This document shows, piece after piece, positions 3,001 to 55,275 of a stretch of 64,000 bases of DNA. The notes under the pieces are model-generated. The model saw nothing but the letters and a program-made list of their open reading frames with translations, did no database searches and was not told the origin of the DNA. Numbering within the stretch: position 1 is the first letter of the stretch; each line of letters starts with the position of its first letter. Both the position numbers and the translations under genes were made by a program. Source of the stretch: Myxococcales bacterium (GTDB lineage: Bacteria; Myxococcota; Myxococcia; Myxococcales; UBA5297); assembly GCA_031552145.1 (NCBI GenBank), contig JAVBMV010000007.1, positions 226,486 through 290,485 of the forward strand, written 5' to 3'.

Positions 3001-5945
3001 GCTGCGATGGCCACGAGGCGGGCGATGAGCTTGGTTGTGTCACCGAATCGGCCTTCAAGAGCCCAACGCTCAGGGTGGATAACCTCGCGGCAGGTGTCTA
3101 CTACCTGTGGGTCGATGATGCCACTACCAGCGACACGACAATCTTGGGTGCGGGGAGCGTCTTCTCCCTGGCAATTACTTTGGAGCCGACGATCACTCCC
3201 TCCGAATCTCCTTCGCTCTGCCATCCGGCGAAGCCTATTCACATGCCCGCGGGGGGCTTTGTCGAGGAGCTGGGAACGACGGTGGGCGGCTTTGCTGGTG
3301 ATCCGGGAGCCGGCACCTACAACGGCCCGAGCGTCTACTATGCACTCACCTTGGCGGAGAGCGGCAGGGTCACGATCAAGGTGGAGCGAGGAGCCGACGC
3401 GCCCACGACCTACACGCCCTCCATCATGCTCCGCGACGGCGGCTGCTCACTTTCCCTGGGTAGCGCCAGTCCAACTGTAAACGCCAATTCCAACTTCTTT
3501 GGAGCGCAGCTGACCACGGCGACCGCGCTCTCCAAGGACTCGTCTTACATACTCACTGTCGATAGCCAAGCCGGTACGAATGCCGCCGGCAGCTTCAAGC
3601 TGACGATCATACCCTATCTAGATGGAAAGGCCGTGGTCGAAGGCCAGTGCGCCCCGACGGCCCAGCTCACCGTTGGCCTTGCCGCGCCACGCGCGGTCTT
3701 CTCCTCCACCAGCACCACCAGCAGCGCCCTCTTCACCTCGACCTGTCTCATCGAGCATGAGCCTCCAATGCCAGACAGTATCCTCTCTGGCACTGCCAAG
3801 GAGGTGCTCTTTGGCCTGAGGGTGGCGGCGGGGGTCCCGCAAGGAAAGCGCCTTACCATCGACGTCATGCCGCTCGATACCAACTTCAAGCCCCTGCTCG
3901 AGCTGCGCAGCGGACCCTGCGACATCACCCGACAGCAGGGCGCAACGGTGGGATGCGGTTGGCTCTACAGCACGGGCTCCGCGACGGCCACGCCGAGAAG
4001 AATCGTGGTCGATAACGTGACTCCGGGCGACTATAACCTCTGGGTGGACGCGACGGGAGAAGCGACGGGAGGCGCCGCCGTTTATGGCCCCTTCATCCTC
4101 GATATCAAGCTCGAGGAGAAGCCAGCCGCCAATCCTCCGGGCGACACGTGCGCTCAGGCGGCGCCCATTACGCTGCTTGGAGGTGCCTCGGCACATATCG
4201 AAGGGACCTTCGATGGGGCGACGAACAGCACAGAACTGTCGTGCATCAATGATATGGAGCCATTCTTCATCAACGGTCCAGATCGCTATTATCTGCTCGA
4301 CCTCGCTGTGGCCAGGAAGGTGACCGCCAGGCTGAGCACCTCACCTACCCTGTGGGCCGGCATGGAGCTGCGCCCCGACTGTAGCAGCGACCACAAGTCA
4401 ATGGCGTGTGCCGCCACGACCAGCCTCGGGCGAATGGTCACGCTCTCTAGCTTCTCCATCCCCAGGGTCGAAGCAGGTAAGTACCGCCTCGTCGTCTTGG
4501 CCAACGAGGGGAGGCGATATGGGAATTATGAGATCGACCTCGTTCTGGATGAGCCGGGTCCTGGAATCGACAACGACACCTGCGAGACGGCTACGCCCAT
4601 TATACTCGATGCGCACAATCGCCTCTCTTTCAAGACGGCGCCCATCGGCAATGCCACCTCCGGCGAAGAGCTCCCCAGTTTCGATTTGGATGGCTCCGGC
4701 TACCAGATTCCCGCCGCGCTCGTTGGGCCGGACATCTACTATTCGCTACAGGCGCCTGCTGGAAAGAAGCTCTCCGTCAGCGTTAGGACTCACGAGTCTC
4801 TGGCAACTGCCATCTTCCTAAGAGCCGACTGCGAGCATGCCGGCAATGGCCAGGAGATCCACCGGGTCGATAGTGCCAAGATGAACAGGCAGGGGACGGA
4901 CCCGTCGGCAAAGATCTATGACTCGACCGCAATAATGGTTCACAACTCGCTGCCTCCATCGCCGACCGGCACGTACATTCTAGCCATCGATACTCGAAAC
5001 TCGGGCCCGCACGAACTTCAGATTGACGTCAGTCTCGAGGATTCTCGACCGATCACCAACGACTCCTGTCCTGTCGGTACCGAGACGGGAGAGGTCCTGC
5101 AGTTCGTCGACGGCCGGGCGATGATCATGGGTAACATCGAGGATGGCACCCCCGATACCGTCGGCCGCTGCCACGCCGACTCACAAGGGGAGACCTTCGG
5201 AAGGGGCTCTGTCGGCCCGGACAGGGTCTACGTGGTAAAGACTACGGAGGCACACAATCTCGATGCGACCGTTATGTCTTTCGGTGGGTTCGTCCCCTCG
5301 CTCTACCTGCGAAAGGAGTGCGCGAGTGAGGATGTGGCCAATGAGCTTGCCTGCACCTACATGGAGAGCGTCGCGGCGATCAAGCGGACCGCGCTGCCCG
5401 CGGGCACCTACTATCTTTGGGTCGACTCGTCGGTGATCTCGGCGACCGGCGCCTATGTGTTGGATGTCAAGCTCGAACCCACGACCGGCGCCTTGCCGGG
5501 CGAGTCTTGCGACAACCCCATCGAGCTGGAGAATGGCGTTCCTTGGCTTGGCTCCAACGCCGCCTACCAGAACGACTATGGCAATCCGCTCTTCGCGGGG
5601 AGTGTCTGCAATCCACCGGGGTACGACCCTATCAGAGGCAAGCGTCGCTCGCCGGGCGCCGACATCATCTTTAAGTATACCCACCTGAGTGACGCGCCCT
5701 TCGGCGTCACGGTCGATTGTATCGACGGCGTTGATACCACGATCATGGTCTCGGAGGGTGTTTGCGACGGTTCGCCTCAGAGCTGCGGCTGGTTCTCTTC
5801 GGCTCGCCCGGACCAGAAGAACAACTGCATGGAGAATGTACAGCTCTCCTATCCGAAGAAGGACCAAACCTACTACATCATCGTCGACAGCCCCACCCAG
5901 ACTCAGCTGAAAAAGGGCGGGCGGATTAGCGTAGTGGTCTACTAA
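1..5945 (+). CDS. Giant secreted multi-module protein, 5'-truncated by the window edge (13 tandem ~135-aa four-Cys PPC-like modules in the window)
   Basis: The frame is open back to base 3. The residues before the GTG at 39 (FLGFVFDLTLRD) read like the G-x-F-x-L-x-L end of a preceding module, so the gene starts upstream. There are 13 modules with the skeleton NDxC..A / G(S/T)T..A.(N/D)D / C / G.D(L/V)VY.F / P.(L/I)Y(L/I)R..C / ELxC / L.(P/A)G.YY(L/I).VD(S/G) / G.F.L.(V/L). TAA stop at 5943-5945, followed by a strong hairpin. Confidence 0.85.
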   Translation, partial: FLGFVFDLTLRDVPAAPVNDKCENAMDLGVMRPNEPSSHIELDIGTLEGATRDLKGTSEKALASPGVDVVYKFKVENTVAFRARVTSREDSLAGPTLVLVQSDDCAPNVELATGYYAATRLPFNARGDTLFLPRNPLSSMPGAALMPGTYYLYVVATTPVEGAFYLDLSVYETEDEVINGKPTSVVKGRSCAKAVQIPIDAATGIGTMRADTAGAFGVDKARSLDCMYMSAGSTPDLFFKFTVPAGGQRDAEIVVAPDRYSGQAPIIYLRTDCANPLTEFSCETVSSTYAPAKITPKRLAGGATYFLVVDSVLHALTDSYAIEIKLTASAAAPANDKCSAALVDMEFVENIATAQGDTAEATDDYQGSCYSRAVSGNDLVYQFQLTEKKYDIKVSVTSTADFAPAACVRSTCDATAAGELACSRDMAEPILVNNLAPGKYYVVVDSDLRQSSGPFTLTVERIDAIPPPANDVCGAGVTGLTFDGSNIAFISGESTIRANNDTAPRCTPYPTVAASPDVFYSFTTPAATVDAPSWKAVARVFRTGSYRPASPYIAEVAIRSVCDSNAAEHQLGCGYDLGFNISTKPAGVGVAMAVAPKLLPSTTYYVVVDGSINTSGTFDLEVRLFDGADTPDNCASAETLDFLTGVESIRASTFGAVNDSASSTLAAAASAGADVVYHVKPLAPSDLTVNLTFASTFAGATLYIRKGVCASTNKTDEIASAVRGGGGPVSLVVPDLVAGTDYYIWVDGEAAMMGEYWLDAELIPTTTVPTNVSCTTATPVPINNDVGSISGSTLRGANTNTASGMCGVMNGNDQVFSFEISGTENRSVKIELAPALSSPTFVPSLYLRSGCGGATEKALGCVLGVADTTTRLSRYDLRPGIYYIYVDSPTAGMGGGFELTVTLGKPIAYPDTCDEAVSIALDEAGRATVVGDTTAATNDSYGSVAGCGMMSGIVPYGGPGRSGRDLVYKLDTTTLSGNRDLTASLFGSTERAMQLYLKRSCDGHEAGDELGCVTESAFKSPTLRVDNLAAGVYYLWVDDATTSDTTILGAGSVFSLAITLEPTITPSESPSLCHPAKPIHMPAGGFVEELGTTVGGFAGDPGAGTYNGPSVYYALTLAESGRVTIKVERGADAPTTYTPSIMLRDGGCSLSLGSASPTVNANSNFFGAQLTTATALSKDSSYILTVDSQAGTNAAGSFKLTIIPYLDGKAVVEGQCAPTAQLTVGLAAPRAVFSSTSTTSSALFTSTCLIEHEPPMPDSILSGTAKEVLFGLRVAAGVPQGKRLTIDVMPLDTNFKPLLELRSGPCDITRQQGATVGCGWLYSTGSATATPRRIVVDNVTPGDYNLWVDATGEATGGAAVYGPFILDIKLEEKPAANPPGDTCAQAAPITLLGGASAHIEGTFDGATNSTELSCINDMEPFFINGPDRYYLLDLAVARKVTARLSTSPTLWAGMELRPDCSSDHKSMACAATTSLGRMVTLSSFSIPRVEAGKYRLVVLANEGRRYGNYEIDLVLDEPGPGIDNDTCETATPIILDAHNRLSFKTAPIGNATSGEELPSFDLDGSGYQIPAALVGPDIYYSLQAPAGKKLSVSVRTHESLATAIFLRADCEHAGNGQEIHRVDSAKMNRQGTDPSAKIYDSTAIMVHNSLPPSPTGTYILAIDTRNSGPHELQIDVSLEDSRPITNDSCPVGTETGEVLQFVDGRAMIMGNIEDGTPDTVGRCHADSQGETFGRGSVGPDRVYVVKTTEAHNLDATVMSFGGFVPSLYLRKECASEDVANELACTYMESVAAIKRTALPAGTYYLWVDSSVISATGAYVLDVKLEPTTGALPGESCDNPIELENGVPWLGSNAAYQNDYGNPLFAGSVCNPPGYDPIRGKRRSPGADIIFKYTHLSDAPFGVTVDCIDGVDTTIMVSEGVCDGSPQSCGWFSSARPDQKNNCMENVQLSYPKKDQTYYIIVDSPTQTQLKKGGRISVVVY

Positions 5946-9146: not shown

Positions 9147-10913
9147 ATGCCTATTTGCAATACCAACAAGTTCATCGGCCTCTGCGCCGCCGGCGCGCTC
9201 GCGCTCGCGCTCGCGGCGGGCTGCGCCAGCGCGCCCGTCGTCAAGGAGGCGCCGGTGCCCGAGGAGAAGCCCATGTCGCTGCAGCAGCGCGTCGATTCTT
9301 TCCTGGAGAGCTACTTCGCCGACCTTTCGCAGAAGGAGCTGGCCGCGAGCAGCGCCTGGTGGAACGCCTCCACGAACGGCTCCGAAGAGGCCAGCAAACG
9401 CTACGCGGAGGCGGAGCTTGCCCGGCGTCTGGTGCACGCCGACGAGGCCCGCTTCGCGGCGCTGAAGGCGCTGCGCGCCGAGGCGGCCGAGCTGCGCGCG
9501 CGCGGCGAGGTGGCGCTCGATGCCAAGTCCGAGCGCTCGCTCGAGCTGGCCGAGCTGGCCTTCAAGGGAGAGCAGCTCCCGCCCGCGCTGCTCAAGCAGA
9601 TGGTCGACGCCTCGACCGAGATCGAACTCATCTTCAAGACCTTCCGCCCCACGGTGGGGGGGAAGCGTTTGACCAACAACGATCTGCTCGGGGTGCTCAC
9701 CTCCGAGAAGAGCAGCAAGAAGCGGCAGGAGGCGTGGCTGGCCTCGAAGGAGGTGGGCGCGCAGGTGGCGGGAAAGCTCATCGCGCTGGCGAAGGTGCGC
9801 AACGAGGCGGCGCGCTCGCTCGGCTACGCCAACTTCTGGGATATGCAGATGCGCCTGCAGGAGCATGACCCCGCGCAGGTGATCGCCCTCTTCGCCGAGC
9901 TGGAGCGCGTCACCGACGCCCCCTTCGCCGCCATGAAGGCGCAGCTCGACGCCGAGGTGGGGCGCCACCTCAAGGTCGCGCCAAAGGCGCTCATGCCCTG
10001 GCACTACACCAACCCCTTCTTCCAGGACGCGCCCCCCAATGAGAAGGTCAATCTCGACACCTTCTTCGCCGGGATGCCCCAGGAGCGGATCGCCGAGCTG
10101 GCGGTGCGCTTCTACGCCGACATCGGCATCGACGCCGCGCCCATCATCGAGCGCAGCGATCTCTACGAGCGCGAGGGGAAGGATCAGCACGCCTTCTGCA
10201 TCACCCTCGATCGCAAGAAAGATATTCGGACGCTGCAGAACGTGAAGGCGACCAACCAGTGGATGGAGACGATGCTCCACGAGGTGGGTCACGGCGTCTA
10301 CTACGCCGGTATCGACGAGAGCTTGCCCTTCAACCTGCGCGAGGCGGCGCACACCCTCACCACCGAGGCGACCGCGATGCTCTTCGGCGCGCTGGCGAAG
10401 AACCCCATGTGGCTGACGAGCTACGCGGGCATCGACGCCAAGGCGATGGCCAAAGTGGAGAAGTACATTCTGGAGCAGCGCCGGCGCGAGCAGCTCATCT
10501 TCGTGCGCTGGGGGCTCGTGATGCTCAACTTCGAGCGCGCGCTCTACGAGAACCCTGACCAGGATCTCGACGCGCTCTGGTACCAGTACGTGGCGCGCTT
10601 CCAGGGACTGAAGCCGCTCGAGGGGCGCCATGGCGACTGGGCCGCGAAGCCCCACTTCACGGTGGCGCCGGTCTACTACCACAACTATGTGATGGCCGAG
10701 CTGATGGCGGCGCAGCTGCGCTCGCGCTTCGCGACCATGGCGGGCCACACGGGCCCCGCCTCGGCGCTCTCCTTCAACGGGCGCAAGGAGTTTGGGCAGC
10801 ACATGAACGAGAAGCTCTTCGCCCCCGGCATGTCGCACCACTGGCCCGAGCTGGTCGAAGAGGTGACGGGCGCCAAGCTCTCCACTGCCGCCTTCGAGGC
10901 CGAGGTGAAGTAG
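9147..10913 (+). CDS. M2-family (ACE-like) zinc metallopeptidase lipoprotein
   Basis: Lipobox LALAAGCAS. HEVGHGVYY...LPFNLRE...TTEATAM parallels the ACE HEMGHIQYY...LPVSLRR...HEAIGD zinc site (HExxH plus a downstream Glu). The segment WLASKEVGAQVAGKLIALAKVRNEAARSLGYANFWD is also ACE-like. Confidence 0.75.
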   Translation: MPICNTNKFIGLCAAGALALALAAGCASAPVVKEAPVPEEKPMSLQQRVDSFLESYFADLSQKELAASSAWWNASTNGSEEASKRYAEAELARRLVHADEARFAALKALRAEAAELRARGEVALDAKSERSLELAELAFKGEQLPPALLKQMVDASTEIELIFKTFRPTVGGKRLTNNDLLGVLTSEKSSKKRQEAWLASKEVGAQVAGKLIALAKVRNEAARSLGYANFWDMQMRLQEHDPAQVIALFAELERVTDAPFAAMKAQLDAEVGRHLKVAPKALMPWHYTNPFFQDAPPNEKVNLDTFFAGMPQERIAELAVRFYADIGIDAAPIIERSDLYEREGKDQHAFCITLDRKKDIRTLQNVKATNQWMETMLHEVGHGVYYAGIDESLPFNLREAAHTLTTEATAMLFGALAKNPMWLTSYAGIDAKAMAKVEKYILEQRRREQLIFVRWGLVMLNFERALYENPDQDLDALWYQYVARFQGLKPLEGRHGDWAAKPHFTVAPVYYHNYVMAELMAAQLRSRFATMAGHTGPASALSFNGRKEFGQHMNEKLFAPGMSHHWPELVEEVTGAKLSTAAFEAEVK

Positions 10914-10935
10914 CCGCTCGACGCGCTGCGTAGTA

Positions 10936-10975
10936 CCCGCGGGGGCCGTGCCGATGGGCGCGGCCCCCGCGCGCT
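10936..10975. repeat. GC-rich hairpin, left copy of a direct repeat bracketing the ATPase gene at 11095-12342
   Basis: GCGGGGGCCG...CGGCCCCCGC forms a 10-bp stem. The 31-bp core GCCGTGCCGATGGGCGCGGCCCCCGCGCGCT (10945-10975) is identical to 12441-12471. The similarity extends about 10 bp further 5' with 2 mismatches. Confidence 0.8.
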
Positions 10976-10984
10976 TTGCGCTGT

Positions 10985-11094
10985 GACTCCAGAACCTCCC
11001 CGGCTCGACTCCAAATTTGCGCCATCCGGACTCCAGATCATCCCCGACTTGACTCCAAATCGTCCCCGGCCTAGCCTCCAAATCGTCCCTTTTC
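10985..11094 (+). repeat. Five tandem ~22-bp direct repeats (iteron-like) ending at the ATPase start codon
   Basis: Units start at 10985, 11007, 11029, 11051 and 11073/4: GACTCCAGAACCTCCCCGGCTC / GACTCCAAATTTGCGCCATCCG / GACTCCAGATCATCCCCGACTT / GACTCCAAATCGTCCCCGGCCT / (A)GCCTCCAAATCGTCCCTTTTCG. Consensus GACTCCARATC.TCCCCGG. Confidence 0.8.
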
Positions 11095-12342
11095 GTGGTC
11101 CGGAGCACCGCCATTCCAGCTCTTTTCCCCAGACTCACCGAGAACCGTCTAAGAGAGGCGTTACAGGACACGCCCGTGGTCTTAGTTGCCGGGCCCAGGC
11201 GTGCGGGGAAGACCACGCTCGTCAGAGGCCTCGAGACCGGTGATCGCCCCTACCTCACGCTCGACGATCCAGGACAGCTCGAGGGTGCCAGGCGAGATCC
11301 CGTTGCCTTTGTCCGTCGCTTCGACAGCGCCATCATCGACGAGGTCCAGCGCGCTCCCGCGCTGCTCCTGGCCATCAAGCGCGCGGTCGATGAGGAGAGC
11401 CGGCCCGGGCGCTTCATCCTGACGGGCTCCTCCAACGTCATGTTGTTGCCGACCGTGGCCGATAGTCTGGCTGGGCGCATGGAGACTCTTCAGCTCTTTC
11501 CGCTTTCGCAGGCGGAGATGCGCGGGGGCTCGGGAGCGTTTCTGGAGGTGCTCTTCGCGGGAAAACTTCCCAAGGCAGGAGCGCCGCTCATCGGCAAGCA
11601 ACTGATCGGCGCCGTACTCGCGGGCGGCTACCCCGAACTCCTTGCGCGAAAGAGCGAGGCGCGCAGACATGAGTGGGCATCGAACTATCTAGAGGCGGTG
11701 TTGAGTCGCGATCTGCGGGAGATTGCCACGATAGAGAAGCTGACCGAACTTCCCCTCTTCGTGGAGTTACTCGCCCGCTACTCGGGGCAACTCTTGAACT
11801 ATTCGGCATTGGGCGTGGGATTGAGTATCTCCTCCAAAACGAGCCAGCGATATGTGTCGCTCCTGGAGCGGATCTTTCTCACCACTTCTCTGCGCGCATG
11901 GCACGGCAACGCGCTGAAGCGCCTCGTGAAGACCCCGAAGCTGCACTTTCTAGATACAGGGCTACTCGCTACATTGCAGCAGCTCTCCCCAGAAGCGCTC
12001 CTCGAGAAGAACGAGCTCTTCGGCCCGCTCCTCGAGAGCTTCGTCGTTGGGGAGGTATTCAAGCTGATGACCCGCGGCGGTCCGAGGGTACGCCCCTACC
12101 ACTTCCGTGACGCGAAGGGGCATGAGGTCGACCTCGTGCTGGAGCGCTCTAGCGGGCAGATGATCGGCATCGAAGTGAAGGCCGGTGCCACCATAGGCGC
12201 CTCCGACTTCAAGGGGCTGAGTGCGCTCTCCGCTGCCGCGGGAAAGCGCTTCGTTGCCGGCGTCATCCTGTATGACGGAAAAGAGGTGGCGCCCTTTGGA
12301 CCCAATCTGGCGGCGATACCTCTCTCCTGTTTATGGGCGTGA
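11095..12342 (+). CDS. AAA+ ATPase with C-terminal DUF4143-type PD-(D/E)xK nuclease-like domain
   Basis: Walker A GPRRAGKTTL; Walker B AIIDEVQ; C-terminal GHEVDLVLE...IGIEVKAG motif typical of AAA_14/DUF4143 proteins. GTG start at 11095 is uncertain. Confidence 0.8.
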   Translation: MVRSTAIPALFPRLTENRLREALQDTPVVLVAGPRRAGKTTLVRGLETGDRPYLTLDDPGQLEGARRDPVAFVRRFDSAIIDEVQRAPALLLAIKRAVDEESRPGRFILTGSSNVMLLPTVADSLAGRMETLQLFPLSQAEMRGGSGAFLEVLFAGKLPKAGAPLIGKQLIGAVLAGGYPELLARKSEARRHEWASNYLEAVLSRDLREIATIEKLTELPLFVELLARYSGQLLNYSALGVGLSISSKTSQRYVSLLERIFLTTSLRAWHGNALKRLVKTPKLHFLDTGLLATLQQLSPEALLEKNELFGPLLESFVVGEVFKLMTRGGPRVRPYHFRDAKGHEVDLVLERSSGQMIGIEVKAGATIGASDFKGLSALSAAAGKRFVAGVILYDGKEVAPFGPNLAAIPLSCLWA

Positions 12343-12431
12343 TCTCCGAGCAGGAGTCCCGCAAGAGCGAAGGCCCGGCGAGACACTGGCTCTCCGAAGA
12401 ACCGCATGCTTGCTCGATAGGCTGCGCAATA

Positions 12432-12471
12432 CCGGCGGGAGCCGTGCCGATGGGCGCGGCCCCCGCGCGCT
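12432..12471. repeat. Right copy of the hairpin/direct repeat; abuts the stop codon of the convergent giant gene
   Basis: The 31-bp core 12441-12471 is identical to 10945-10975. One stem mismatch (GCGGGAGCCG). The giant-gene stop (CTA on the plus strand) is at 12472-12474. Confidence 0.8.
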
Positions 12472-15400
12472 CTAGGGCGTCGTTACATAGAGCTCGAATT
12501 GCCCCTTGGAGCTGTCAGCATCCACGATGATGAAGTAGGTGTGGTTTGGGATGGCGGGAGAGATGGTCACGCTTTTGGCCGAGGTGTTCGAGGTGAGCGT
12601 GGCGCCGACGCAGCTGTTTGCATCGTTGCAGCTCGAATTGACCGAGACGAAACCTGCCCAGTAGGTGCTGACGCGCGAGTTGTCGATCACGACGGTAAAG
12701 AGGGCACTTGTCTTGGGGGTGTAGCTGTAGACGAGGTCGGGTCCGTTGCCGTTCGAGGTTGCGGTGTAGCCGGCGTTGTAGGCCGCGCAGCCGTTGATCA
12801 AGGAGTCTGGTGCGGTCTGAAAGCCAGAGCGCGTCTTGCTGAAGGTGCTGTGGGCGTCGCTTGTCGAACCCATGACGGGGCGGTTGAGCTCGAGCGCGAT
12901 GGCGTCGCCGCAGGTCTGGTTTGGCGGAACGGAACCATCGGCCGCGGGGGTCTTCGTCAGTTCGACGCCGTAGGCCATCGCCGCCGTGGCGCTGATGCCG
13001 CCCTCGATAAAGAGGAAGTAGGTCCCCGGGGGCAGAGTGAGTGAGGTGGCCGTCGTCGGCAAGTTGGGGTTGCAATAGACCTCGGCGTCGCGGGACGTGT
13101 CAGTGCAGGCGGTTCGGATGTAGGCGTAGGCGGTGCCCGAGCTCTTCTTGAGTGTGAGGGTCGTCGTTCCAGTCAGCTCCAGCTTGTAGAGATCCTCCGC
13201 CATGGCCATGGAGGCGAGGCAGTGCCCGCCCGCGAAGCTCTCCGAGGTGGCCTGGGTGATATTCCTCGTGAGGGTGACCGTGCTCGTCGTGCTAGGTGGT
13301 GTGGGGGCTATCCAGTCGAGCGCGCCGAGGTTGTCGCAAGTGTAGTTCATGGGCTTGGCCGTCTCGGCCACGGTCGTGAGGGTGACGTTCAACCTGAAGC
13401 TGCCGAAGGCAGCCGTCGAGACGGAGTCGACCCACAGAAAGTAGGTGCCGACTGGGAGATACTGGTGGCTGAGCTTGCCCGTTCCCGTCGCGACGCCCTT
13501 GCGCCCGATGACATCGCCCTCCGTGCAGGCTGCTCTGAGGTAGAGGACCGGACTGACAAAGTTTGCCTCGATCTCCGAGAGGGAGGCCTCGAGCGACTTG
13601 GGCCCATCCTTGATCTCGAGGCTGTAGACCAGGTCGGCCCCCCACACATACTGATGCGTGCTGGTTCCGACGGAGAGTCGTGAGGAGTCGTTCCGCGCAA
13701 AGCGCAGGTCGCCCGTGGTGGTCGCGGTGAAGGGCCCTGTGCCCGAGAACTCCAGCTTCTCGGGCAAGGTGCAGTCGTCATTCGCGGCATAAGCGAAGGC
13801 GTCGGGCGCCGAGAGGGAGAAGTCGAGCCAGTAGGCGCCGGTATCGTTCGCGGCGTGGCTGTCGATCCAGAGGTACCACTTACCCGCGGGTACCAGGTGA
13901 ATATCGAGTGCCGCGGTGTTGGCCGAGGTGGGGGCGACACAGCCGAAAGAGGGGCTTGAGCTCGGTTCGTCGCAGCGCTTCAACAGGTAGAGGACGGGCC
14001 TAAAACCCGAGGCGACTGCGCTGACTCTGAGGTGCTGTGGCGTGGCGAAGTCGAGCTCATAGACGCGATCGGGCCCCTTCGCCACGGCGCAGGGCGCGGC
14101 GGAGCTATTGGAGCCCTCGTCGATCAGCCCGCTCACGACGGCGGAGCCGTTCGAGAAGGTCACCTTTCCCGCGTCGGGAAAGGGAGAGAGGCAAGTATCG
14201 TTCGCCGCGTAGCGGGGTGCGGGAGCGAGCGAGAGCTCGAGTTGGAAGGGGCCGACGGCCCCGACCTCTTCACTGTCGACGATGACATAGAGCAGCCCCG
14301 AGGTGGCGCGCGTTGCCGAAAGCGTGAGGGGTTGGCCTCGGCGTGCCGAGTTGAGACATGCCAGCTCTCCCGAGGGCGAGGCCGTGCAGTCATTCCTGAT
14401 GTAGAGGGTGGGGGCGAAGCTGGAGGAGAAGGGGGGCTCCTCGGGCGTCAGCGTCGCCGTGAGCCGATAGTTGGCCGGAACCATCACGGGGAAGGCGAGA
14501 TCGGGCCCCTTGGTGGCGTAGCAACTTCCCTCTTGCTGATGCGTCCCCAGCTCTATTCCGGGCAGGTGGAGCGTGCGGCGCCCCGAGGAGTCGATGGCGA
14601 TCGGCTCGGCGCCTGGGTCGCAGAGATCGGGGATGCCCACGGTGGGCGCGTCGAAGGTGAGCGTCAGCGCGAAGAGCGCGCTCTTCGCGTCGGGCGGCGT
14701 CGTGGTCGAGCCCGCGATGAGCCAGTAGTTCCCGGGCGCCAAGGAGTGGAGCGACAGCGTCGCCCTTCCGCCCGCCGGGGCGCTGCAGCCGCGCTCGTCG
14801 GCCCACGTGGCGCTGTCGCATGAGCCAGCGCGGAGCGTCAGTGACGGGAGCAGCGCGCTCTCCATCGCCTCCATCGTCGCGGTAAGCGAGCGCGCTCCCG
14901 CGATGGCCGGGATCGTGAAGGCGTAGACAATGTCGCGACCGTTCGTCGCGGCGCAGGAGCCCTGGTAGTTGGCGCTGGCGCCGCGCAGCGTTCCGCGCAG
15001 CACGTTGGTGCCCGACATATCCAGGCCGGAGATCGGGATGCCCGGACAGAGATCGCCGGAAGCCGCGCCGTAACGTACGCTCGCGTGGAGCGTGAAGGCG
15101 CCGCTCTGGGTCGGGGTGTAGCTGTCGACGATGACGCGATACTGGGACTGGCCTCTCATCGGCACCTGATAGACGAGCACCGCGGGGAGGGCGCGCGTGC
15201 CCGGCAGCGCGCAACGCGGATCCCGCGCCTCGCTGAAGCAGTTGGCGGAAATGTCCGTGGAGAGCGACAGGACCGGGAACATGGCGGTGCTGGTGTCGGC
15301 CTGTACGGAGAGCTCGATTGTTGCCGCGGAGAGCGCCAGCCTCTCGGGATCCAGTTCGAGCGCATACACGATGTCGCTACCGGAGGCGGCCTTGCAGCCA

Positions 15401-18400
15401 GTATGGCCATGGTCGACTTCGATCGCGGTGTCGCCCATCAGCGTCGCCTGATCTTCGTGCAGCTCGATCTTGATCGGTGCTTCGCAGCTCCCTCCGACTG
15501 GCAAGAGCTCTACCGCGATGTCGAAGCGCGTCCTGACGGTGGCGCTCATCGAGTCGAGCCAGAGGTAGTAGTCGCCGGGGCTTTGCAGGGTGGTACGGAG
15601 CATCGCCTTCGCGCCGGTCGTCACCCTGGAGCAGAGCTCTCCCGCCGTCGTGGTGCAGGTCGTTCGCCGCAAGATGATTGCCGCGCCCGAGGTCGAGCCG
15701 TCAATCGTCGCGGTGATGAGGAGATCGGCTGGCATGGGGAGCTCGGGGATGGAGAGCTTGTAGATGTTCTCGACACCGGGGAGCGATCGCTGGAGCGCCG
15801 AGGTGTTGCAGGCATCGAGCGACGCGAGGGTGTTCTGCGCGGAGGCGTCGTTGAAGCCAAAGAACGAGAGCTTTCCATCGGTTAGCGTCAGCGGCGTAGC
15901 CTCGGCCTCGGCGCAGGACATGTTGGTACCCGTTGCCAGCGCTACCTCGAGCGCGTAGACGTCCCCCTCCGCGGAGAGGCCATCGACGATGATGAAGTAG
16001 GTCCCCTCGATGAGCGAGCTGATCGAGGCGCGCTTCGTCGCGCCCGCCGCCACCTCGGCGAAGGCGAGCTCATCGGCCGCCGCGCCTGAATCGCAGCTCT
16101 TGCGCAGGTAGAGCGCCAGGGCGAGGCCGGGCTTCATCGATTGATTGGTGAGCTGAGTCGAGAGGGTGTAGCGCTTCCCGGCGGGGACCACCACAGAGTA
16201 GATGGCCTCCCCTCCCGGCGTGGGTTTGGTTGAGGAGCTTTGTGTTCCAACCAGTCCGAAGGTGCTCCCTGTCAGATGCTGGCTGCCGATGATGCTCGGG
16301 GTGCCGGCAGCCCCCTCCCGCAGCACCTGCGTCGCGCTGGCGCAGGTGGCGTTGGTCTGCGGCGGCGGCGCTTCGTCGCTCTCGATGCGCAGCTCAAAGG
16401 CGCCGCGCAGCGGACTCACCGAGTCGACGATCAGGTAGTAGATGGCGGGCGTCAGGTTGCCCTGGAGCGTGACGGGGCCACCCCGCTCCGAGGCCGAGGC
16501 CATCAGCTCCTCCTCGGGCAGCGCGTCTTCACAAGTGCCCTTGCGCAGGTAGAGAAGCGCCTCGCCGTCGAAGGAGGAGAAGGCCGCCGTCGCGGTGAGA
16601 TGCTTGGGCGAACCCTGAACCTCGAATCGGTAGATCAGATTGCCGCCATTGCCCTTTGCCAGCTTCAGGGAGGCGAGGGTGTTCGCGGCGAAGGTGGTGT
16701 CGCCCGGAATCGTCAGGAGGCCCGGCGCGATGGGCAGCGAGATGGGCTCGGCCGCCGCGCAGGAGTCGGGAAGGCGCGAAGCGAGTGGCGTCAGTGAGAG
16801 ATCGAGCGAGAAGGAGCCGGCGGAGTTGGAGCTGCCATCGACGATGAGGAAGTAGTTGCCGCCGGCCATGAAGGCGTCGAGGGTCACCATTCCCGGCGTC
16901 GCACTCTCGGCGGAGCAGGCCAGCTCGGCATGGGTGTCGAGGCTCGCGCACTGCCCGTCGCTGCGTAGGTAGAGCGCCGGGCTATAGGCTACATCGTTGG
17001 TGTGGGCGCGAATGGTGAGCCGACCGGGCTCGCCGACCGCGATCTTGTAGACCAGATCGGGACCATCGAGCGGCGCGTCGACCTTGCCGCAGGTGCCGCG
17101 GTAGTCGGCGCGCGCGTTGGCCGTCGTGGCGTTGAGCACCTGGGCGCGAAAGCTGGGCGCCGCGAGCGAGAGGCTCTGTGGCGTGGAGCAGGTGTCGTTC
17201 GCGGGAGCGATGCCGGCGTCGACGCCCTCAACCTTCAGCTCGAACTTCCCTTCCTTCTCTTCCAGAGAGTCGACGAAGAGGTAGTTCTTCCCCGTGACGT
17301 TGGGGAGCGTGAGTACGAGCGGGCTGGAGACGCCGCCGACGCGGCATGCGCGCTCCTCCGCCAAGGCGCCGCAGCCAGAGCGCACATAGAGGATCGGCAC
17401 ATACTTCGCTTCCTGGGGCGTCAGCGTGATGGTGAGCGTCTTTACCGCGCTGCCCAGGTCGACCAGATAGACCAGCTCGGCGCCCGTGGAGTCGGCGCGA
17501 CAACCCGCCACCGAGTCGTGAGTGGCGTTGGCGGTGCTGGCGATGGCGTTGTCGCCCAGGGCGAGGTCGGCCGCATCTTCACAGAGGTCGTTCCAGTCGA
17601 TGCCGGAGAGTTCGAGCGCGATCTCTAGGTCGAAGAGCCCTTCGCTCCCCGCGGCGCTGTCGACGACCAAGATCCAGCTGCTGCCCGGCGCACGCCGCGC
17701 GGCGCTCGCCTCCGCTTTTCCGCCATCGAGGGATGCACAGGTCAACTCGCTGCCCTGCTCCTCGCAGTTCCTGCGCAGCGAGAGCGTGGGGATGAGCGCG
17801 CTGCCGGGGCGCGGCGTGACGGTGGCCTTCAGGTTGTAGGTGGCGTCATTGGGGAGATTGAGCTTCCAGAGCAGCTCTCGGCCCGAGCTACCAGCGCCAC
17901 AGGAAGCGCTTCCCAGACTCGCGCTGCCGAAGGAGGTGTCGGAGATGGCGGTGTAGATCAGCTCCGTGGGGGAGAAGGTCACCTCACGCACCGTGGAGCA
18001 GGTGCCATTGTCGGCGCGCGGCAGAAGCGCCGCCTGGAGCATGAAGGCGCCCTCCGAGCGGTCGGCTCCATCGACGACGAGGTACCAGCTACTGCCCGCG
18101 GCGAGCTCGGGCGCGTGGAGGATGGTGTAGGCGCGCCGCGCGGTGTTGGGGGCGCATGCGGTTGCCCCGGTCCCAGGCGCGCACTCCGGTACCAAATAGA
18201 GCGCGGGTCTGTAGCCGCTGCTCGGCTCCGCGGCGTCGACGCGGGCGACGAAGGAGGAGGGCTCGTTGACGCTGAAGTGAAAGCTCACCTCTCCGCCCGA
18301 GTTGGGCAGGCAGGAGGGGGAGAGGTCATTGCGCGCGTCGACGTTGGTGCCGCTTTCGCTGGCTAAGCCCTCGGGATCGAAGGTGAGCGCGATGGAGGTT

Positions 18401-20541
18401 GTGGGGCCGCAGCTGTCGCCCGCGGGCGCGGCGCCTCGCTCCGGTAGCTCCACTTCCAGGTTGAAGTACCCCGAGCGTTCGCCGCCCAGCTCGTCGTTGG
18501 CGCTATCGACGACGAGGAAGTAGGTGCCGGGCGCCAGCCCGAAATAGCCACCCGTGATTGGCGCGGCTTCCTCTCCACGCACGCACTTGGTCGTTCGTGC
18601 ACAAAAGAGCGTGGAGTCGATATCGTCGCAGGCAGTGCGCAGTGAGATGATTGGGCAATAGTTTGAAAGAACGCTCGGCGCAAGGCTGTAGCGGACGGTC
18701 CTGTCTCGCCCCTCGGGCACGACGAAGGAGTAGACCAAGTCGCGCCCGTTAGCCGAGGCGCAGGGCGAGGAGAAGGCGTCGGTTGCCCCCGCGGTAGTGC
18801 CGCTCTTGAAGGCCGTGGGGGTGAGGCTGGTAGGAGGCGAGGTGAGGAACTCCAGCGGGGCCATCGAGCTATTGCAGATGTCGTTGTAGATGGGCGCGCC
18901 GAAGGAGACCTCGAGCGCGAAGTCGCCGCCACCGAGGGTGCCGCCCACACGAAGCATGATCGCTTCACCGGCCGAGAGAAGCGGAACGAAGAGTTCCGCC
19001 GCGATGGGCTGGTTGGGAGTTCGTCCCTCGATGTAGCCCGCCTTAGGGCCCACATCGCAGAGCCGCTCCTCGCCTGCCTCGTTCAATAATGCAAGTCCGG
19101 GAAACCATGGGTTGGCCCAGTAGAAGTCGGAATAGTTCCTTGGCGCCTTGGGGATGAGAGAGGCATGTATGCTGACGTCGGCTTCGAGCGAGAAGGGGAA
19201 GAAGACGTCGCTGCTGGTGAGCGCGCAAGCGCCAGGATTGGATCGCGGTTCGACACTGGCAAGCGCCGTGGAGCCTTCGATGTTGAGCAGCGACTCGCCC
19301 GCTACTACCGTGGGCTGCAGCTCATAGGTCTGCTCGAGGGAATCGTTCTCGGGAGAGGGCTGTTCCTCGGCGGTGATTGTAACCCGCATCTTTCCGGTGC
19401 CGAAGCCGCTTGCGGGGTGGCCCTGCCCAATCCAGAGGTAGACGGTGCCGGGGCCGACGCCGGCGGCGCGCAGCTTGATCGGGTTGCTGTTGGTGAAGGC
19501 AGAACAGGCGAGCTCCAGATCGTGCGTCAGCGAGTGGTCGAGACACTCGGAGGTGAGATGCAGGTAGGGGATGACGCCGCTCTCGGGGAAGCCCTCTACT
19601 ACGAGCCGGCTCGGCCGCTCCAGCGCGATGGCGTAGACGACGTCATTGTTGTAGCTCTGCAGGCAGGAACCCTGTCTGTTCTTGGTCGCGCCCCGCGTGT
19701 CGACCTCGAACTCCACATATCCCTCGATCAACGTGAGTGGCTCGGCCTCGCCGCAACCGTCGTTGCCGGGAGCCGCGGTCGTGGGTTGGCAGGCGTGGTT
19801 GACGCACCGGCTCGTGCCCTCACAGGAGGTGCCGAGCAGCGCGGCGCAATCGACCTTTCGCGGCGCTCCGCAGTTGTCGAGCCCCTGGTATGGATAGGTG
19901 CCGCACTCCTTGCCATTGCGTTGGCAGAAGAGCGTGTCCGACTCGGGCGGGCAGACACAGGTGTTGTCGATGCAGTCGTTATTCGGAGCGGTGCAAGTGT
20001 CGGGACAGGCGACGTCGCGTTCGGTGCCGCAGGCGTCGGTCGTCAGAAGCCGGCCACACGCGACACTGAAGGCCGTGCAGAGCGCCGAGTCGGCAGGTGG
20101 CTTGCAGCAGGATCCCTTGCCCGCTCCCGCGGTGCAGAGCTCCGCGCTGTCGCAGGTGTTGGGGCAGTCGTAGGTGCGTTGGTCGCCGCACAGGTTCTGC
20201 CCGCTGTATTTGCCGCAGATTACGCCGTGCCGTTCACAGAACTCCTCGCGCGACTCCTCTTCGCATTTGGAGACGCACTGCTGCTCCGCGTCGCACTCTT
20301 CGTTTGCGCCGCAAGGACCGCATTCCCCGTCGCAGCCATCGTCGCCGCATTCTTTCCCCGCACAGTCGGGGATGCATTCGGGGCCCGTGTCCGCGTCGGC
20401 TCCCACATCAGTGTCGCCCTTGAGGCCCACATCGCCCGTGTCGGAAGGGGGGAAGGGGTCGCTGGGGCTTGCGGGGCCGCAGCTGCTGGCGCCGAGCGCG
20501 CAGGTCAGGAGTGCTGCTATCGAGATAAGGGTCGTACGCAT
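12472..20541 (-). CDS. Giant lipoprotein: ~256-aa Cys-rich head plus 17 tandem four-Cys PPC-like modules (2689 aa)
   Basis: ATG at 20541 is preceded by AAGGAGAAGCG. Lipoprotein signal MRTTLISIAALLTCALGASSCGP. The head contains CGDDGCDGECGPC and 3 x FCxRxGxxCG...CG...DC units. Then 17 modules with the same skeleton as gene 1-5945, e.g. DLVYKI...PALYLRSDGQC...ELACS...GGNYFLIVDGSSNSAGSFSLDLSL. The track start at 20586 adds 15 implausible residues. Confidence 0.9.
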   Translation of the reverse strand: MRTTLISIAALLTCALGASSCGPASPSDPFPPSDTGDVGLKGDTDVGADADTGPECIPDCAGKECGDDGCDGECGPCGANEECDAEQQCVSKCEEESREEFCERHGVICGKYSGQNLCGDQRTYDCPNTCDSAELCTAGAGKGSCCKPPADSALCTAFSVACGRLLTTDACGTERDVACPDTCTAPNNDCIDNTCVCPPESDTLFCQRNGKECGTYPYQGLDNCGAPRKVDCAALLGTSCEGTSRCVNHACQPTTAAPGNDGCGEAEPLTLIEGYVEFEVDTRGATKNRQGSCLQSYNNDVVYAIALERPSRLVVEGFPESGVIPYLHLTSECLDHSLTHDLELACSAFTNSNPIKLRAAGVGPGTVYLWIGQGHPASGFGTGKMRVTITAEEQPSPENDSLEQTYELQPTVVAGESLLNIEGSTALASVEPRSNPGACALTSSDVFFPFSLEADVSIHASLIPKAPRNYSDFYWANPWFPGLALLNEAGEERLCDVGPKAGYIEGRTPNQPIAAELFVPLLSAGEAIMLRVGGTLGGGDFALEVSFGAPIYNDICNSSMAPLEFLTSPPTSLTPTAFKSGTTAGATDAFSSPCASANGRDLVYSFVVPEGRDRTVRYSLAPSVLSNYCPIISLRTACDDIDSTLFCARTTKCVRGEEAAPITGGYFGLAPGTYFLVVDSANDELGGERSGYFNLEVELPERGAAPAGDSCGPTTSIALTFDPEGLASESGTNVDARNDLSPSCLPNSGGEVSFHFSVNEPSSFVARVDAAEPSSGYRPALYLVPECAPGTGATACAPNTARRAYTILHAPELAAGSSWYLVVDGADRSEGAFMLQAALLPRADNGTCSTVREVTFSPTELIYTAISDTSFGSASLGSASCGAGSSGRELLWKLNLPNDATYNLKATVTPRPGSALIPTLSLRRNCEEQGSELTCASLDGGKAEASAARRAPGSSWILVVDSAAGSEGLFDLEIALELSGIDWNDLCEDAADLALGDNAIASTANATHDSVAGCRADSTGAELVYLVDLGSAVKTLTITLTPQEAKYVPILYVRSGCGALAEERACRVGGVSSPLVLTLPNVTGKNYLFVDSLEEKEGKFELKVEGVDAGIAPANDTCSTPQSLSLAAPSFRAQVLNATTANARADYRGTCGKVDAPLDGPDLVYKIAVGEPGRLTIRAHTNDVAYSPALYLRSDGQCASLDTHAELACSAESATPGMVTLDAFMAGGNYFLIVDGSSNSAGSFSLDLSLTPLASRLPDSCAAAEPISLPIAPGLLTIPGDTTFAANTLASLKLAKGNGGNLIYRFEVQGSPKHLTATAAFSSFDGEALLYLRKGTCEDALPEEELMASASERGGPVTLQGNLTPAIYYLIVDSVSPLRGAFELRIESDEAPPPQTNATCASATQVLREGAAGTPSIIGSQHLTGSTFGLVGTQSSSTKPTPGGEAIYSVVVPAGKRYTLSTQLTNQSMKPGLALALYLRKSCDSGAAADELAFAEVAAGATKRASISSLIEGTYFIIVDGLSAEGDVYALEVALATGTNMSCAEAEATPLTLTDGKLSFFGFNDASAQNTLASLDACNTSALQRSLPGVENIYKLSIPELPMPADLLITATIDGSTSGAAIILRRTTCTTTAGELCSRVTTGAKAMLRTTLQSPGDYYLWLDSMSATVRTRFDIAVELLPVGGSCEAPIKIELHEDQATLMGDTAIEVDHGHTGCKAASGSDIVYALELDPERLALSAATIELSVQADTSTAMFPVLSLSTDISANCFSEARDPRCALPGTRALPAVLVYQVPMRGQSQYRVIVDSYTPTQSGAFTLHASVRYGAASGDLCPGIPISGLDMSGTNVLRGTLRGASANYQGSCAATNGRDIVYAFTIPAIAGARSLTATMEAMESALLPSLTLRAGSCDSATWADERGCSAPAGGRATLSLHSLAPGNYWLIAGSTTTPPDAKSALFALTLTFDAPTVGIPDLCDPGAEPIAIDSSGRRTLHLPGIELGTHQQEGSCYATKGPDLAFPVMVPANYRLTATLTPEEPPFSSSFAPTLYIRNDCTASPSGELACLNSARRGQPLTLSATRATSGLLYVIVDSEEVGAVGPFQLELSLAPAPRYAANDTCLSPFPDAGKVTFSNGSAVVSGLIDEGSNSSAAPCAVAKGPDRVYELDFATPQHLRVSAVASGFRPVLYLLKRCDEPSSSPSFGCVAPTSANTAALDIHLVPAGKWYLWIDSHAANDTGAYWLDFSLSAPDAFAYAANDDCTLPEKLEFSGTGPFTATTTGDLRFARNDSSRLSVGTSTHQYVWGADLVYSLEIKDGPKSLEASLSEIEANFVSPVLYLRAACTEGDVIGRKGVATGTGKLSHQYLPVGTYFLWVDSVSTAAFGSFRLNVTLTTVAETAKPMNYTCDNLGALDWIAPTPPSTTSTVTLTRNITQATSESFAGGHCLASMAMAEDLYKLELTGTTTLTLKKSSGTAYAYIRTACTDTSRDAEVYCNPNLPTTATSLTLPPGTYFLFIEGGISATAAMAYGVELTKTPAADGSVPPNQTCGDAIALELNRPVMGSTSDAHSTFSKTRSGFQTAPDSLINGCAAYNAGYTATSNGNGPDLVYSYTPKTSALFTVVIDNSRVSTYWAGFVSVNSSCNDANSCVGATLTSNTSAKSVTISPAIPNHTYFIIVDADSSKGQFELYVTTP

Positions 20542-20801
20542 CGCTTCTCCTTGCGAGAGAACACATTTGCCCACCGTGTCGCACACTTGTGGCTATCACA
20601 GGCGCAGGAAGGAGAGAAGCGTGGGGGAACGGTGCCGAGAAGAGATGCCAAATCATTGCCCGCGGCGGCGCCAAGCTCCAATTCGCGGATTGAGCGTTGA
20701 GGCGGAAGCCATATTCCAATGACGATTGCCCTGTCTGCGAAAATCCCCTAACATCCCTCGTTTCACATGCTGTGAGGATGCTGGATAGAGCGGGAGTGAA
20801 C

Positions 20802-27748: not shown

Positions 27749-28240
27749 ATGGCCCAAAAGATCTCGCCCCTGCTTCCCCCAACCGCGGAGCTGTTGCGAC
27801 AGCTCGGCGCACGGCTCAGGCTCGCCCGGCTGCGGCGCGGATTGACGGCGCGCCAAGTCGCGGAGAGAGCCGGCATGGCCCCGATGACCCTTCGCGGAGT
27901 AGAGAGGGGCGCGGCGGGAGCGACGATTGGCGCCTATGTAGCCGTCCTGCAGGTGCTCGGGCTCGAGAGCGCGCTGGCCCTGCTCGCCAAGAGCGACGAA
28001 GTGGGGCGCGAGCTGCAGGACGCCCAACTTCCGAGCAGGCCACGGCCCAGACGCGTCGCAGGCGGAGGGCGCGCCTCGAGTGCGAAGAAACATGAAGCGC
28101 CTCATGATGCTCCTTCGAAGGCGCAGAGTAAGGCTCCGAGCTGGGCCGCCGCCGCCGGCTTTGTCACCTCCGAGGAGCTGGCACGCGCGCGCTCCGCACC
28201 GCACCCCAGCACCCACACCGACGAAGACGAGCAGGAGTGA
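27749..28240 (+). CDS. hipB: XRE-family HTH protein, HipB-type antitoxin
   Basis: HTH LRLARLRRGLTARQVAERAGMAPMTLRGVERG. The stop overlaps the hipA start (GTGA, 28237-28240). Long, low-complexity C-terminal tail. Confidence 0.8.
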   Translation: MAQKISPLLPPTAELLRQLGARLRLARLRRGLTARQVAERAGMAPMTLRGVERGAAGATIGAYVAVLQVLGLESALALLAKSDEVGRELQDAQLPSRPRPRRVAGGGRASSAKKHEAPHDAPSKAQSKAPSWAAAAGFVTSEELARARSAPHPSTHTDEDEQE

Positions 28241-55100: not shown

Positions 55101-55275
55101 TGTCGCCTCCGAAACGTGTGCAGCCGATGAAGTCGCCGGTACGCCGACGATGATGTAACCGCGGAAGTAGAGCACAAGCGGAGGGTCGATGTGAAGAGAT
55201 GTAGGAGAGGGAGGCCACCGCCTCCGGGCGCATAGATGTAGGGCTGGCGGGAAGATGAGCGCGGAGACAGGAGGC

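Follow-up and report, generated by a model that had tools for sequence, protein, structure and literature searches.

In a 64,000-nucleotide stretch of a Myxococcales bacterium contig (JAVBMV010000007.1, positions 226,486 to 290,485; hereafter the window), a solitary gene for an AAA+ ATPase-nuclease at 11095-12342 on the forward strand lies between two imperfect copies of a 60-nt direct repeat and directly behind an array of five 22/23-bp direct boxes. On balance, this locus is probably a self-contained single-gene module of the candidate defence system PDC-S01, which would be regulated by its own product through the boxes and would have been inserted into the spacer between two convergent genes. 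The conservation and phasing of the boxes, their overlap with the promoter hexamers, their covariation with a short helix of the protein, the domain content of the gene, the repeats, and the points at which DNA similarity between loci ends are all direct observations. From these we infer that the protein binds the boxes and that binding represses the gene, and that the gene was inserted at this locus by the recombination route described below; insertion here is plausible but unproven.

The open reading frame (ORF) at 11095-12342 matches the Pfam models AAA_14 (5.7e-25) and DUF4143 (3.7e-45), and the PADLOC model PDLC04790 (PDC-S01; E=3e-160) covers residues 9-415, nearly its full length. The gene is intact and keeps every family-invariant residue (72 sequences, window protein included), with invariant columns that include GPRRAGKTT (Walker A), IIDEVQ (Walker B) and EVD...GIEVK (the D..ExK nuclease motif). 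With all testable features present, the gene is a member of PDC-S01 / AAA_14-DUF4143 (COG1373), and the window copy is a deep, divergent branch of this known candidate family. The predicted protein would carry a putative helix-turn-helix (HTH) in addition to its AAA+ ATPase and PD-(D/E)XK nuclease domains. PDC-S01 reportedly stands fourth in abundance among the (candidate) defence systems of prokaryotes, with ~39,000 instances detected; its status is that of a candidate, for which no experimental validation has been reported (PMC12988326). The PD-(D/E)XK families listed in PMC3424549 include DUF4143, with no function assigned. The PDCs of PADLOC are predicted from their embedding in defence loci, and phage protection by PDC-S01 is a candidate function. 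Literature searches for DUF4143, PDC-S01 and COG1373 found no functional study, and those for AAA_14/PF13173 returned only noise. Sequence and profile searches of the Protein Data Bank (PDB) found no solved structure related by sequence, and Foldseek against the PDB returned only generic AAA+ folds with TM ~0.2, the weak matches including DnaA and MuB.

The gene lies in a 1,436-bp insert (10976-12411, +) that consists, in order, of 9 nt, the box array with its promoter, the ORF, and a 69-nt tail (12343-12411, +) without similarity to any other locus compared. On either side stands the 60-nt direct repeat, with 88% identity between its left copy (10916-10975) and its right copy (12412-12471). 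The seven mismatches are confined to the left 29 nt, and the remaining 31 nt are identical (Fisher p=0.004). This invariant 31-mer, GCCGTGCCGATGGGCGCGGCCCCCGCGCGCT, occurs at 10945-10975 and 12441-12471, the only two copies in the window. The initial annotation had described a perfect 31-bp repeat, imperfect over about 42 bp, enclosing the ATPase gene; the exact repeat (absent from shuffled sequence) and the enclosure of this one ORF were borne out, and the imperfect extension is real, with a true length of 60 nt. Two nucleotides separate the left copy from the stop codon (TAG, 10911-10913) of an M2/M3-like metallopeptidase gene (9147-10913, +; Pfam Peptidase_M2/M3, homologs full length). The right copy ends 1 nt short of the stop codon (12472-12474) of a convergent giant ORF of 2,704 aa (12472-20586, -) that has no Pfam match at E<=1e-5. 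Were the insert absent, these two genes would be separated by 62 nt, and the duplicated unit accounts for 60 nt of the 62, nearly the whole spacer. In RNA folding, the left copy forms a hairpin with a perfect 15-bp G+C-rich stem and a GATG loop at 10938-10971 (-49.1 kcal/mol for 72 nt, z=-3.86), which is probably a terminator; only this copy is intact, the stem of the right copy being interrupted and degraded (z=-1.6). In the Logan assembly of SRR23967709, the only sample holding these proteins by exact look-up, the peptidase contig (L001, end 11828) stops within the 31-mer, and the ATPase gene lies on its own 1,525-nt contig (L002) with 31-mers at both ends. The contigs break there because the repeat length equals k=31, and the breaks are therefore uninformative on polymorphism.

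An explanation that needs no insertion is that both 60-nt elements are members of a dispersed family of hairpins, of the terminator or repetitive extragenic palindrome (REP) type, and that the ATPase gene is merely flanked by them. REP-type families typically show such an identity (~88%) around a conserved hairpin core, the examined part of the source genome comprises 64 kb, and the repeat that brackets a homologous gene at another locus (L165, below) resembles a low-complexity dispersed repeat. However, the 64 kb held no third copy of the 31-mer with <=3 mismatches (shuffles give 0) and no diverged third copy either, with chance matches of <=20 nt alone (max 13 nt exact). Outside the window, the 27-nt core had zero matches in 185,579 GTDB species genomes and zero in the JGI metagenomes. 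The similarity also includes flanking sequence outside the hairpin, and the two stop codons mark its limits. By phylogenetic affinity the enclosed gene looks foreign: its nearest homologs are 60% identical and mostly alphaproteobacterial, while the relatives of the flanking peptidase are Myxococcota metagenome-assembled genomes (MAGs). On the 64 kb and the two public collections searched, membership in a dispersed hairpin family is thus an unlikely account of the two copies, and we prefer insertion of the module.

The five boxes (GACTCCA[A/G]A[T/A]..., + strand), a predicted operator array, occupy 10985-11094 up to the start codon, as first described, and begin at 10985, 11007, 11029, 11051 and 11074. 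The first four units were returned by a repeat finder and the fifth by motif matching, Tandem Repeats Finder (TRF) run on the window gave a period of 22/23 in the array, and the array motif had 4 matches against 0.55 expected, with none elsewhere in the window. Embedded in the array is a sigma-70-like promoter (11048-11076, +), with a -35 hexamer TTGACT at 11048-11053, a 17-nt spacer, and a -10 hexamer TAGCCT at 11071-11076.

The same arrangement of phased boxes and gene was found well beyond the window. Eighty loci with homologs 50-60% identical were fetched from species-representative genomes and span Alpha-/Gammaproteobacteria, Myxococcaceae, Bacteroidota, Longimicrobiales, Binatia, Vicinamibacteria and others. 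TRF reported period-22 repeats directly upstream of the gene in ~25 of the 80, and in 58 of 78 upstream segments autocorrelation (lags 8-44 tested) was best at 22 or 44; the control figures were 2/79 for downstream, 2/77 for far-upstream and 1/80 for intragenic segments. A replicate on 77 independent metagenome loci gave 60/77 at lag 22 or 44 and 71/77 at 21-23 or 43-44. Taken together, phased boxes stand upstream of ~75% of 155 homologous loci in many phyla, compared with 1-3% of controls, which answers a suggestion in the initial annotation that other DUF4143 loci be examined for a repeat-plus-gene organisation. Box density was 10.6/kb in the 200 nt upstream of the gene and 0.065/kb elsewhere in the loci, a ~160-fold difference. 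Homologous loci carry two to six 'YTYCCAAT' boxes, usually three, 22 bp apart, with peaks at -73, -51 and -29 from the ATG and the common layout aCTTCCAATtagcggaccaTTGACTTCCAATcagccgacatcgATAGTTCCAATcgtccggattcGGAGatggcATG. One box is fused to a TTGACT -35 hexamer at -55/-56 in 53/79 loci, and the next follows directly after a (G/C)ATAGT -10 hexamer, 17 nt past TTGACT. The window matches this layout (TTGACT-17-TAGCCT, with the fifth box over the expected start site) and is distinctive in its Ser247, its CCAAAT-type boxes and its five boxes instead of the usual three.

Not every DUF4143 gene has such an array. A distant one, at L003 (3683-4807, -), shows no 22-bp periodicity upstream, and the array therefore belongs to this subfamily and its near relatives, not to all DUF4143 genes. 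In this unrelated MAG the gene and the closest peptidase homolog are ~5 kb apart, a proximity that looks coincidental. In ~25 alphaproteobacterial loci of different genera, a common hairpin-rich segment of ~100 nt (gcggggtctccccgcagaaggggtcggccgagac..ggctcggccgcaggggaaggctttcccct) lies just upstream of the array, at ~-170 to -100 from the ATG (L015, L018, L020, L023, L025, L036-L038, L043-L046, L048, L055, L056, L059, L064 and L065). Similarity extends up to 3 kb in some of these loci, and the segment has no tRNA, tmRNA or Rfam match.

Evidence on what binds the boxes comes from the protein. Residues 245-253 (codons 11827-11853, +), read here as the recognition helix of the putative HTH, are ISSKTSQRY in the window and VSHKTGQRY in most homologs, and residues 247/248 change together with the box core. 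The variable columns that track box class best are residues 201-275. His-Lys at 247/248 accompanies T(T/C)CCAAT boxes at most loci, and His accompanies C-A in 112/121 loci overall. Tyr-Lys is paired with CTAAT (T-A) in 10/10 loci, Gly-Lys with CCGAA (G-A) in 3/4, and Ser247 with AA (A-A) in 2/2, namely the window (CTCCAAAT) and L125. Two further pairings each mark one clade: His-(Val/Ile), along with Arg252Lys, has TTTCAAT boxes, and His-Arg has TACAAAT / TACCAAT boxes. In a neighbour-joining tree that leaves out residues 225-270, the Tyr/CTAAT loci are scattered over at least five positions; for 5/8 of the Tyr loci in the genome set the closest relative outside the helix region is a His/CCAAT locus, and the metagenome set shows the same residue-box pairing. 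Such repeated, matched changes in protein and DNA would be hard to explain unless the helix contacts the boxes. Divergent clades keep the 22-bp phasing with other boxes, e.g. ATTCCGNAATTTACG; those with the helix LD(S/G/N)KTA.. have boxes ATTCC[G/A]NAATTTACG in the upstream 140 nt (L142, L146, L150, L152, L155, L158-L163, L165, L167), which appears to extend the residue-to-box correspondence past the clade analysed.

An operator for its own protein, and not an origin of replication, is thus the most likely role of the array. The module would bring its own promoter, with both hexamers embedded among the five boxes. A spacing of 22 bp, about two helical turns, would place the boxes on one face of the DNA, where the recognition helix (~residues 245-253) of the protein itself would most likely bind them head-to-tail. 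With boxes lying over both promoter hexamers and the start site, the simplest effect of binding would be repression, which would keep the nuclease at a low level that it sets itself. The earlier suggestion that the array is a multi-site protein-binding platform is supported by these data and can be sharpened: it is a conserved cis element that overlaps the promoter and covaries with the putative helix. In literature naming DUF4143, PDC-S01 or COG1373, we found neither the phased array nor the helix-box covariation, and a family-wide phased operator with a residue-to-base correspondence seems undescribed.

The boxes might instead be bound by a host transcription factor, in which case the array would be an ordinary regulated promoter. 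This would agree with the finding that no DNA-binding domain model matches the protein, whose middle region is modelled with low confidence. Yet the array accompanies the gene in Pseudomonadota, Myxococcota, Bacteroidota, Acidobacteriota and others, among which no common factor is expected and a host factor is therefore unlikely, and the box changes track the 247/248 substitutions in several independent lineages and in an independent data set. We consider regulation by a host factor improbable, somewhat more so than a dispersed hairpin family, and return to binding by the module's own protein as the preferred reading.

The limits of DNA similarity define the extent of the module. In a comparison of 2,966 locus pairs, similarity continued >15 nt downstream of the stop codon for 2% of them and upstream of -130 for 8.5%; it ends at the array and at the stop codon, and the conserved unit is therefore the array plus the ORF. 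Homologs occur in many phyla, and most loci are on chromosome-sized contigs in varied contexts. Homologs are also present on 234 plasmids, 96 of them conjugative, and in the plasmids examined the gene is solitary among unrelated cargo, while the module is rare in phages. Promoter, array and ORF accordingly make up the unit that moves between genomes and plasmids. Behind the module in some alphaproteobacterial chromosomes stand large genes that differ between loci (DEAD/ResIII or SNF2 helicases, DUF6361, or an AAA_23/SMC-like ATPase; L036 4221-7214, L043 4214-7216, L037 4996-7215, L023 4212-5453, L044 4142-5908), a pattern that agrees with a defence island in which the module lies at a recombination boundary.

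At the window locus, the initial annotation had proposed that a ~1.5-kb cassette entered a single hairpin and duplicated it. The evidence is consistent with this as a possible origin. In favour, the repeat amounts to the whole spacer, its core is not dispersed where searched, similarity between loci ends at the array and stop codon, and brackets occur at other loci; against it stand the 24% difference between the left halves of the copies and the failure to find an empty site among relatives. Among ~117 homologous loci scanned for bracketing repeats (control maximum 26 bits), the window scored above the control maximum, as did four or five further loci, and most loci had no flanking repeat, so that the bracket sought at other DUF4143 loci was found at a minority. 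At L029 (2712-2736 and 4225-4249) 25 nt are repeated exactly and are the 3'-terminal codons of the upstream gene. L160 (same as L161) has 62 nt with 4 mismatches (783-844 and 2245-2306) comprising the last codons of a convergent gene, L152 has 15 nt (825-839 and 2231-2245) covering the upstream gene's stop codon, and L165 has 77 nt of low-complexity sequence at 88% identity (576-652 and 2356-2431). A 15-nt repeat at L073 is marginal and possibly due to chance, and one of 17 nt with 1 mismatch at L076 (~2702 and ~4313), consisting of tRNA-like fragments, is at the control maximum, not above it. Fragments resembling a tRNA T-arm were seen at L076 and also at L071 and L082. The window arrangement hence recurs, with the module at a gene 3' end or terminator and the duplicated target around it, often imperfect, with an identical run of 25-31 nt. 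The bracketing repeats of different loci have no common sequence, and such long bracketing duplications at several loci seem undescribed.

With repeat lengths this variable and sequences unrelated, a fixed-stagger, transposase-like cut is disfavoured; recombination between similar sequences, whether att-like (attachment-site) in trans or driven by homology, fits the variable repeats. We suggest that the 1,436-bp unit entered the 62-nt spacer of the convergent genes, leaving 60 nt with the terminator hairpin on both sides. The likeliest route would be one reciprocal (Campbell-type) recombination between the chromosomal hairpin region and a circular DNA that carried the module and a related copy of that region. 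A circular intermediate with one repeat copy would regenerate the bracket on integration, carried out either by homologous recombination or by a recombinase acting in trans from a gene elsewhere; the left copy, with its intact hairpin, would then be the original one, and the right copy the diverged one that arrived with the module. The alternative to this route is an old target duplication with later drift, which must explain the zero change in the 31-nt half. In a cassette that still recombines, the empty-site junction is predicted to join the left arm CGCGGGGGCCGTGCCGATGGGCGCGGCCCCCGCGCGCT to the right flank CTAGGGCG, and the junction of the excised circle to join the right arm CGGCGGGAGCCGTGCC...GCGCGCT to the left end of the insert TTGCGCTGTG. 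Three other kinds of site were considered and rejected. An integron attC is incompatible with the lack of GTT or AAC in either 60-nt copy, which leaves no R'/R'' core sites. A transposon or insertion sequence was rejected on the grounds that the insert ends have no terminal inverted repeats, that neither the ATPase gene nor the flanking ORFs scanned hold a transposase domain, and that the duplication is 60 nt here and 15-77 nt elsewhere. Neither Rfam nor ARAGORN (tRNA and tmRNA) gave a match to the hairpin or to the rest of the window region, and a tRNA or tmRNA target site was rejected accordingly.

A bolder form of the insertion hypothesis holds that PDC-S01 modules are a recombinase-less mobile cassette, in which the array doubles as an assembly site for the AAA+-nuclease and aids insertion at gene 3' ends and terminator hairpins, giving the 15-77 nt duplications. 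We think this quite improbable. Less probable still is that the ATPase-nuclease mobilises its own cassette outright, as a transposase-less element whose protein binds the array and makes a long-stagger cut of the hairpin, the repair of which duplicates ~60 nt. No integrase, transposase or recombinase gene was found in 13 flanking ORFs scanned at 6049-33583, within ~20 kb, a span of which several ORFs were not scanned; this agrees with the original statement that none is present and, like the nuclease domain of a protein that probably binds the left end of the cassette, would suit self-mobilisation. So would the start of the array 9 nt from the junction and the near-equal repeats at two unrelated loci, 60 nt here and 62 nt at L160. 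Against it, any bracketing repeat is present in just ~5-6 of the ~117 loci, the lengths of 15-77 nt show no fixed stagger, and at L029 and L160 a distance of 160-270 nt separates the end of the left copy from the start codon, so that it does not adjoin the array. The lack of terminal inverted repeats and the distribution of differences between the window copies (24% in one half, 0% in the other) also speak against such a cut, and to our knowledge PD-(D/E)XK nucleases do not perform strand transfer on their own. The proposal that the ATPase-nuclease is the mobilising enzyme consequently found no support, given the many loci without a repeat, the variable lengths and the missing inverted repeats.

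It is most improbable of all that the 22-bp repeats are iterons of a plasmid-type origin, with the ATPase as AAA+ initiator of an integrated replicon remnant. The five direct 22/23-bp units do adjoin the gene of their probable binder, as tandem repeats do in P1-, F- and pSC101-type replicons, and correspond to the 17-22 bp repeats of iteron replicons, and the homologs on 234 plasmids and the weak DnaA and MuB matches point the same way. But both promoter hexamers and the start site are overlain by boxes whose register to the ATG is fixed, the array (58% G+C) has no A+T-rich unwinding stretch (DnaA boxes were not searched), the plasmids examined carry repABC or other replicons of their own with the gene among unrelated cargo, most loci are on chromosome-sized contigs in varied contexts, the window neighbours are chromosomal, and the protein has a nuclease domain without the winged-helix Rep fold. 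The iteron resemblance first noted thus finds no support as a replication origin, and the array behaves as a predicted autoregulatory operator.

Several observations weigh against a self-regulated, inserted module and temper the confidence placed in it. The start of the ORF is uncertain between GTG 11095, which lacks a Shine-Dalgarno sequence, and ATT 11113, 7 nt after GGAG (11102-11105). The ATG of homologs aligns with CTT 11122, a non-start codon, and the in-frame ATT 11113 may be a mutated ATG; the public gene call (GTG 11176, 388 aa) would delete family-invariant N-terminal residues. The putative HTH is poorly modelled: the AlphaFold2 model has a predicted local distance difference test (pLDDT) score of 64.8 and a predicted TM-score (pTM) of 0.49, residues 199-286 have pLDDT <50, and low-confidence helices at 236-242 and 247-265 place the 245-253 segment at the start of a helix that follows two shorter ones. 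A Pfam scan of the middle region gave DUF4143 alone and no HTH match, and the DNA-binding domain is therefore deduced only from covariation and sequence pattern. In the genome set the box profile scored the very upstream regions used to train it, the metagenome set being independent, and the window -10 hexamer TAGCCT is weak (3/6) and was not called by a generic promoter scan. Two loci are exceptions to the covariation, L107 (His with CTAAT) and L011 (Lys248 with TACCAAT). As to insertion, no empty site was found among relatives, where the nearest peptidase homologs are <=62% identical without synteny and the contexts of the closest share neither the extracytoplasmic function (ECF)-sigma/FecR genes nor the giant gene. 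The ORF has a G+C content at third codon positions (GC3) of 0.75, where the window median is 0.85. This places it in the low tail, yet the deviation is modest, with ~8 other window ORFs at 0.72-0.78; composition was rejected as proof of foreign origin since the value is low without being unique. The left halves of the copies differ by 24%, unlike a recent simple target duplication, and a Campbell-type event would need a donor that already held a homologous 60-nt segment.

For PDC-S01, an abundant and uncharacterised family, the window yields three leads that can be tested. These are a predicted DNA-binding helix, a likely target in the 22-bp phased boxes on the module's own promoter, and a residue-to-base correspondence (His/C, Tyr/T, Gly/G, Ser/A) that could be checked by mutagenesis. 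A self-regulating unit that travels whole would explain how a potentially toxic nuclease gene establishes itself in very different hosts, and the bracketing duplications may reveal how solitary genes enter chromosomes.

The surroundings of the locus include chromosomal genes such as PFK and glycogen phosphorylase, seen in the scan of flanking ORFs. Three very large ORFs lie in the window, at 39-5945 (1,968 aa), 12472-20586 (2,704 aa) and 50946-55295 (1,449 aa), the first with just a faint GBD_T9SS_assoc match in a precomputed table. A gene for a HipA_C-domain kinase with an N6_N4 DNA methyltransferase gene immediately behind it, and a nearby ORF that weakly matches the archaeal-type ATPase_2, lie at 28237-30350 and 32120-33583. 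These may be other defence or toxin-type genes, ~16-20 kb from the cassette.

Among known systems, REP palindromes and bacterial interspersed mosaic elements (BIMEs) are spread over a genome in many copies; of the 60-nt element the 64 kb hold two copies, both at this locus, and the GTDB species genomes and JGI metagenomes none. A single ORF between imperfect, hairpin-forming repeats of ~60 nt also recalls an integron gene cassette, whereas the window repeats lack the core sites (GTTRRRY / RYYYAAC), the module has its own promoter, and neither IntI nor attI was found nearby, with no integrase among the flanking ORFs scanned. There is also a likeness to cis-mobilizable elements (CIMEs) and tRNA-island remnants, which are also small foreign segments with imperfect direct repeats, an identical segment (25-31 nt in our loci) and no recombinase inside, and in which one copy keeps the native function, here the hairpin. 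The repeats of L029 and L160, formed by the 3' ends of neighbouring genes, and the tRNA-like fragments of L076 belong to the same picture, and direct repeats with an identical core stand at both ends of the window element as in att-bounded elements. It departs from att-bounded islets in that a terminator hairpin takes the place of a tRNA, tmRNA or gene 3' end as target, that no cognate integrase was found in the flanking ORFs scanned, and that the repeats are unrelated between loci. For the array, the closest analogy would be the autoregulation of iteron systems (P1 RepA/incC, F RepE, pSC101 RepA) and of R1 ParR/parC. In these, tandem repeats of ~20 bp on one DNA face overlap the promoter of the binder's gene, and binding gives autorepression. 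In contrast to them, the window array has neither an A+T-rich region nor any sign of origin function, the protein is an AAA+ ATPase-nuclease fusion and not a winged-helix Rep or a ribbon-helix-helix ParR, and PDC-S01 loci are mostly chromosomal with a solitary gene. Relative to other PDC-S01 members (Pfam AAA_14 + DUF4143; COG1373), the window copy has the same two-domain order and the conserved Walker and PD-(D/E)XK residues, and it is set apart by 60% identity to its nearest homologs, by Ser247, and by five boxes of the CCAAAT type.

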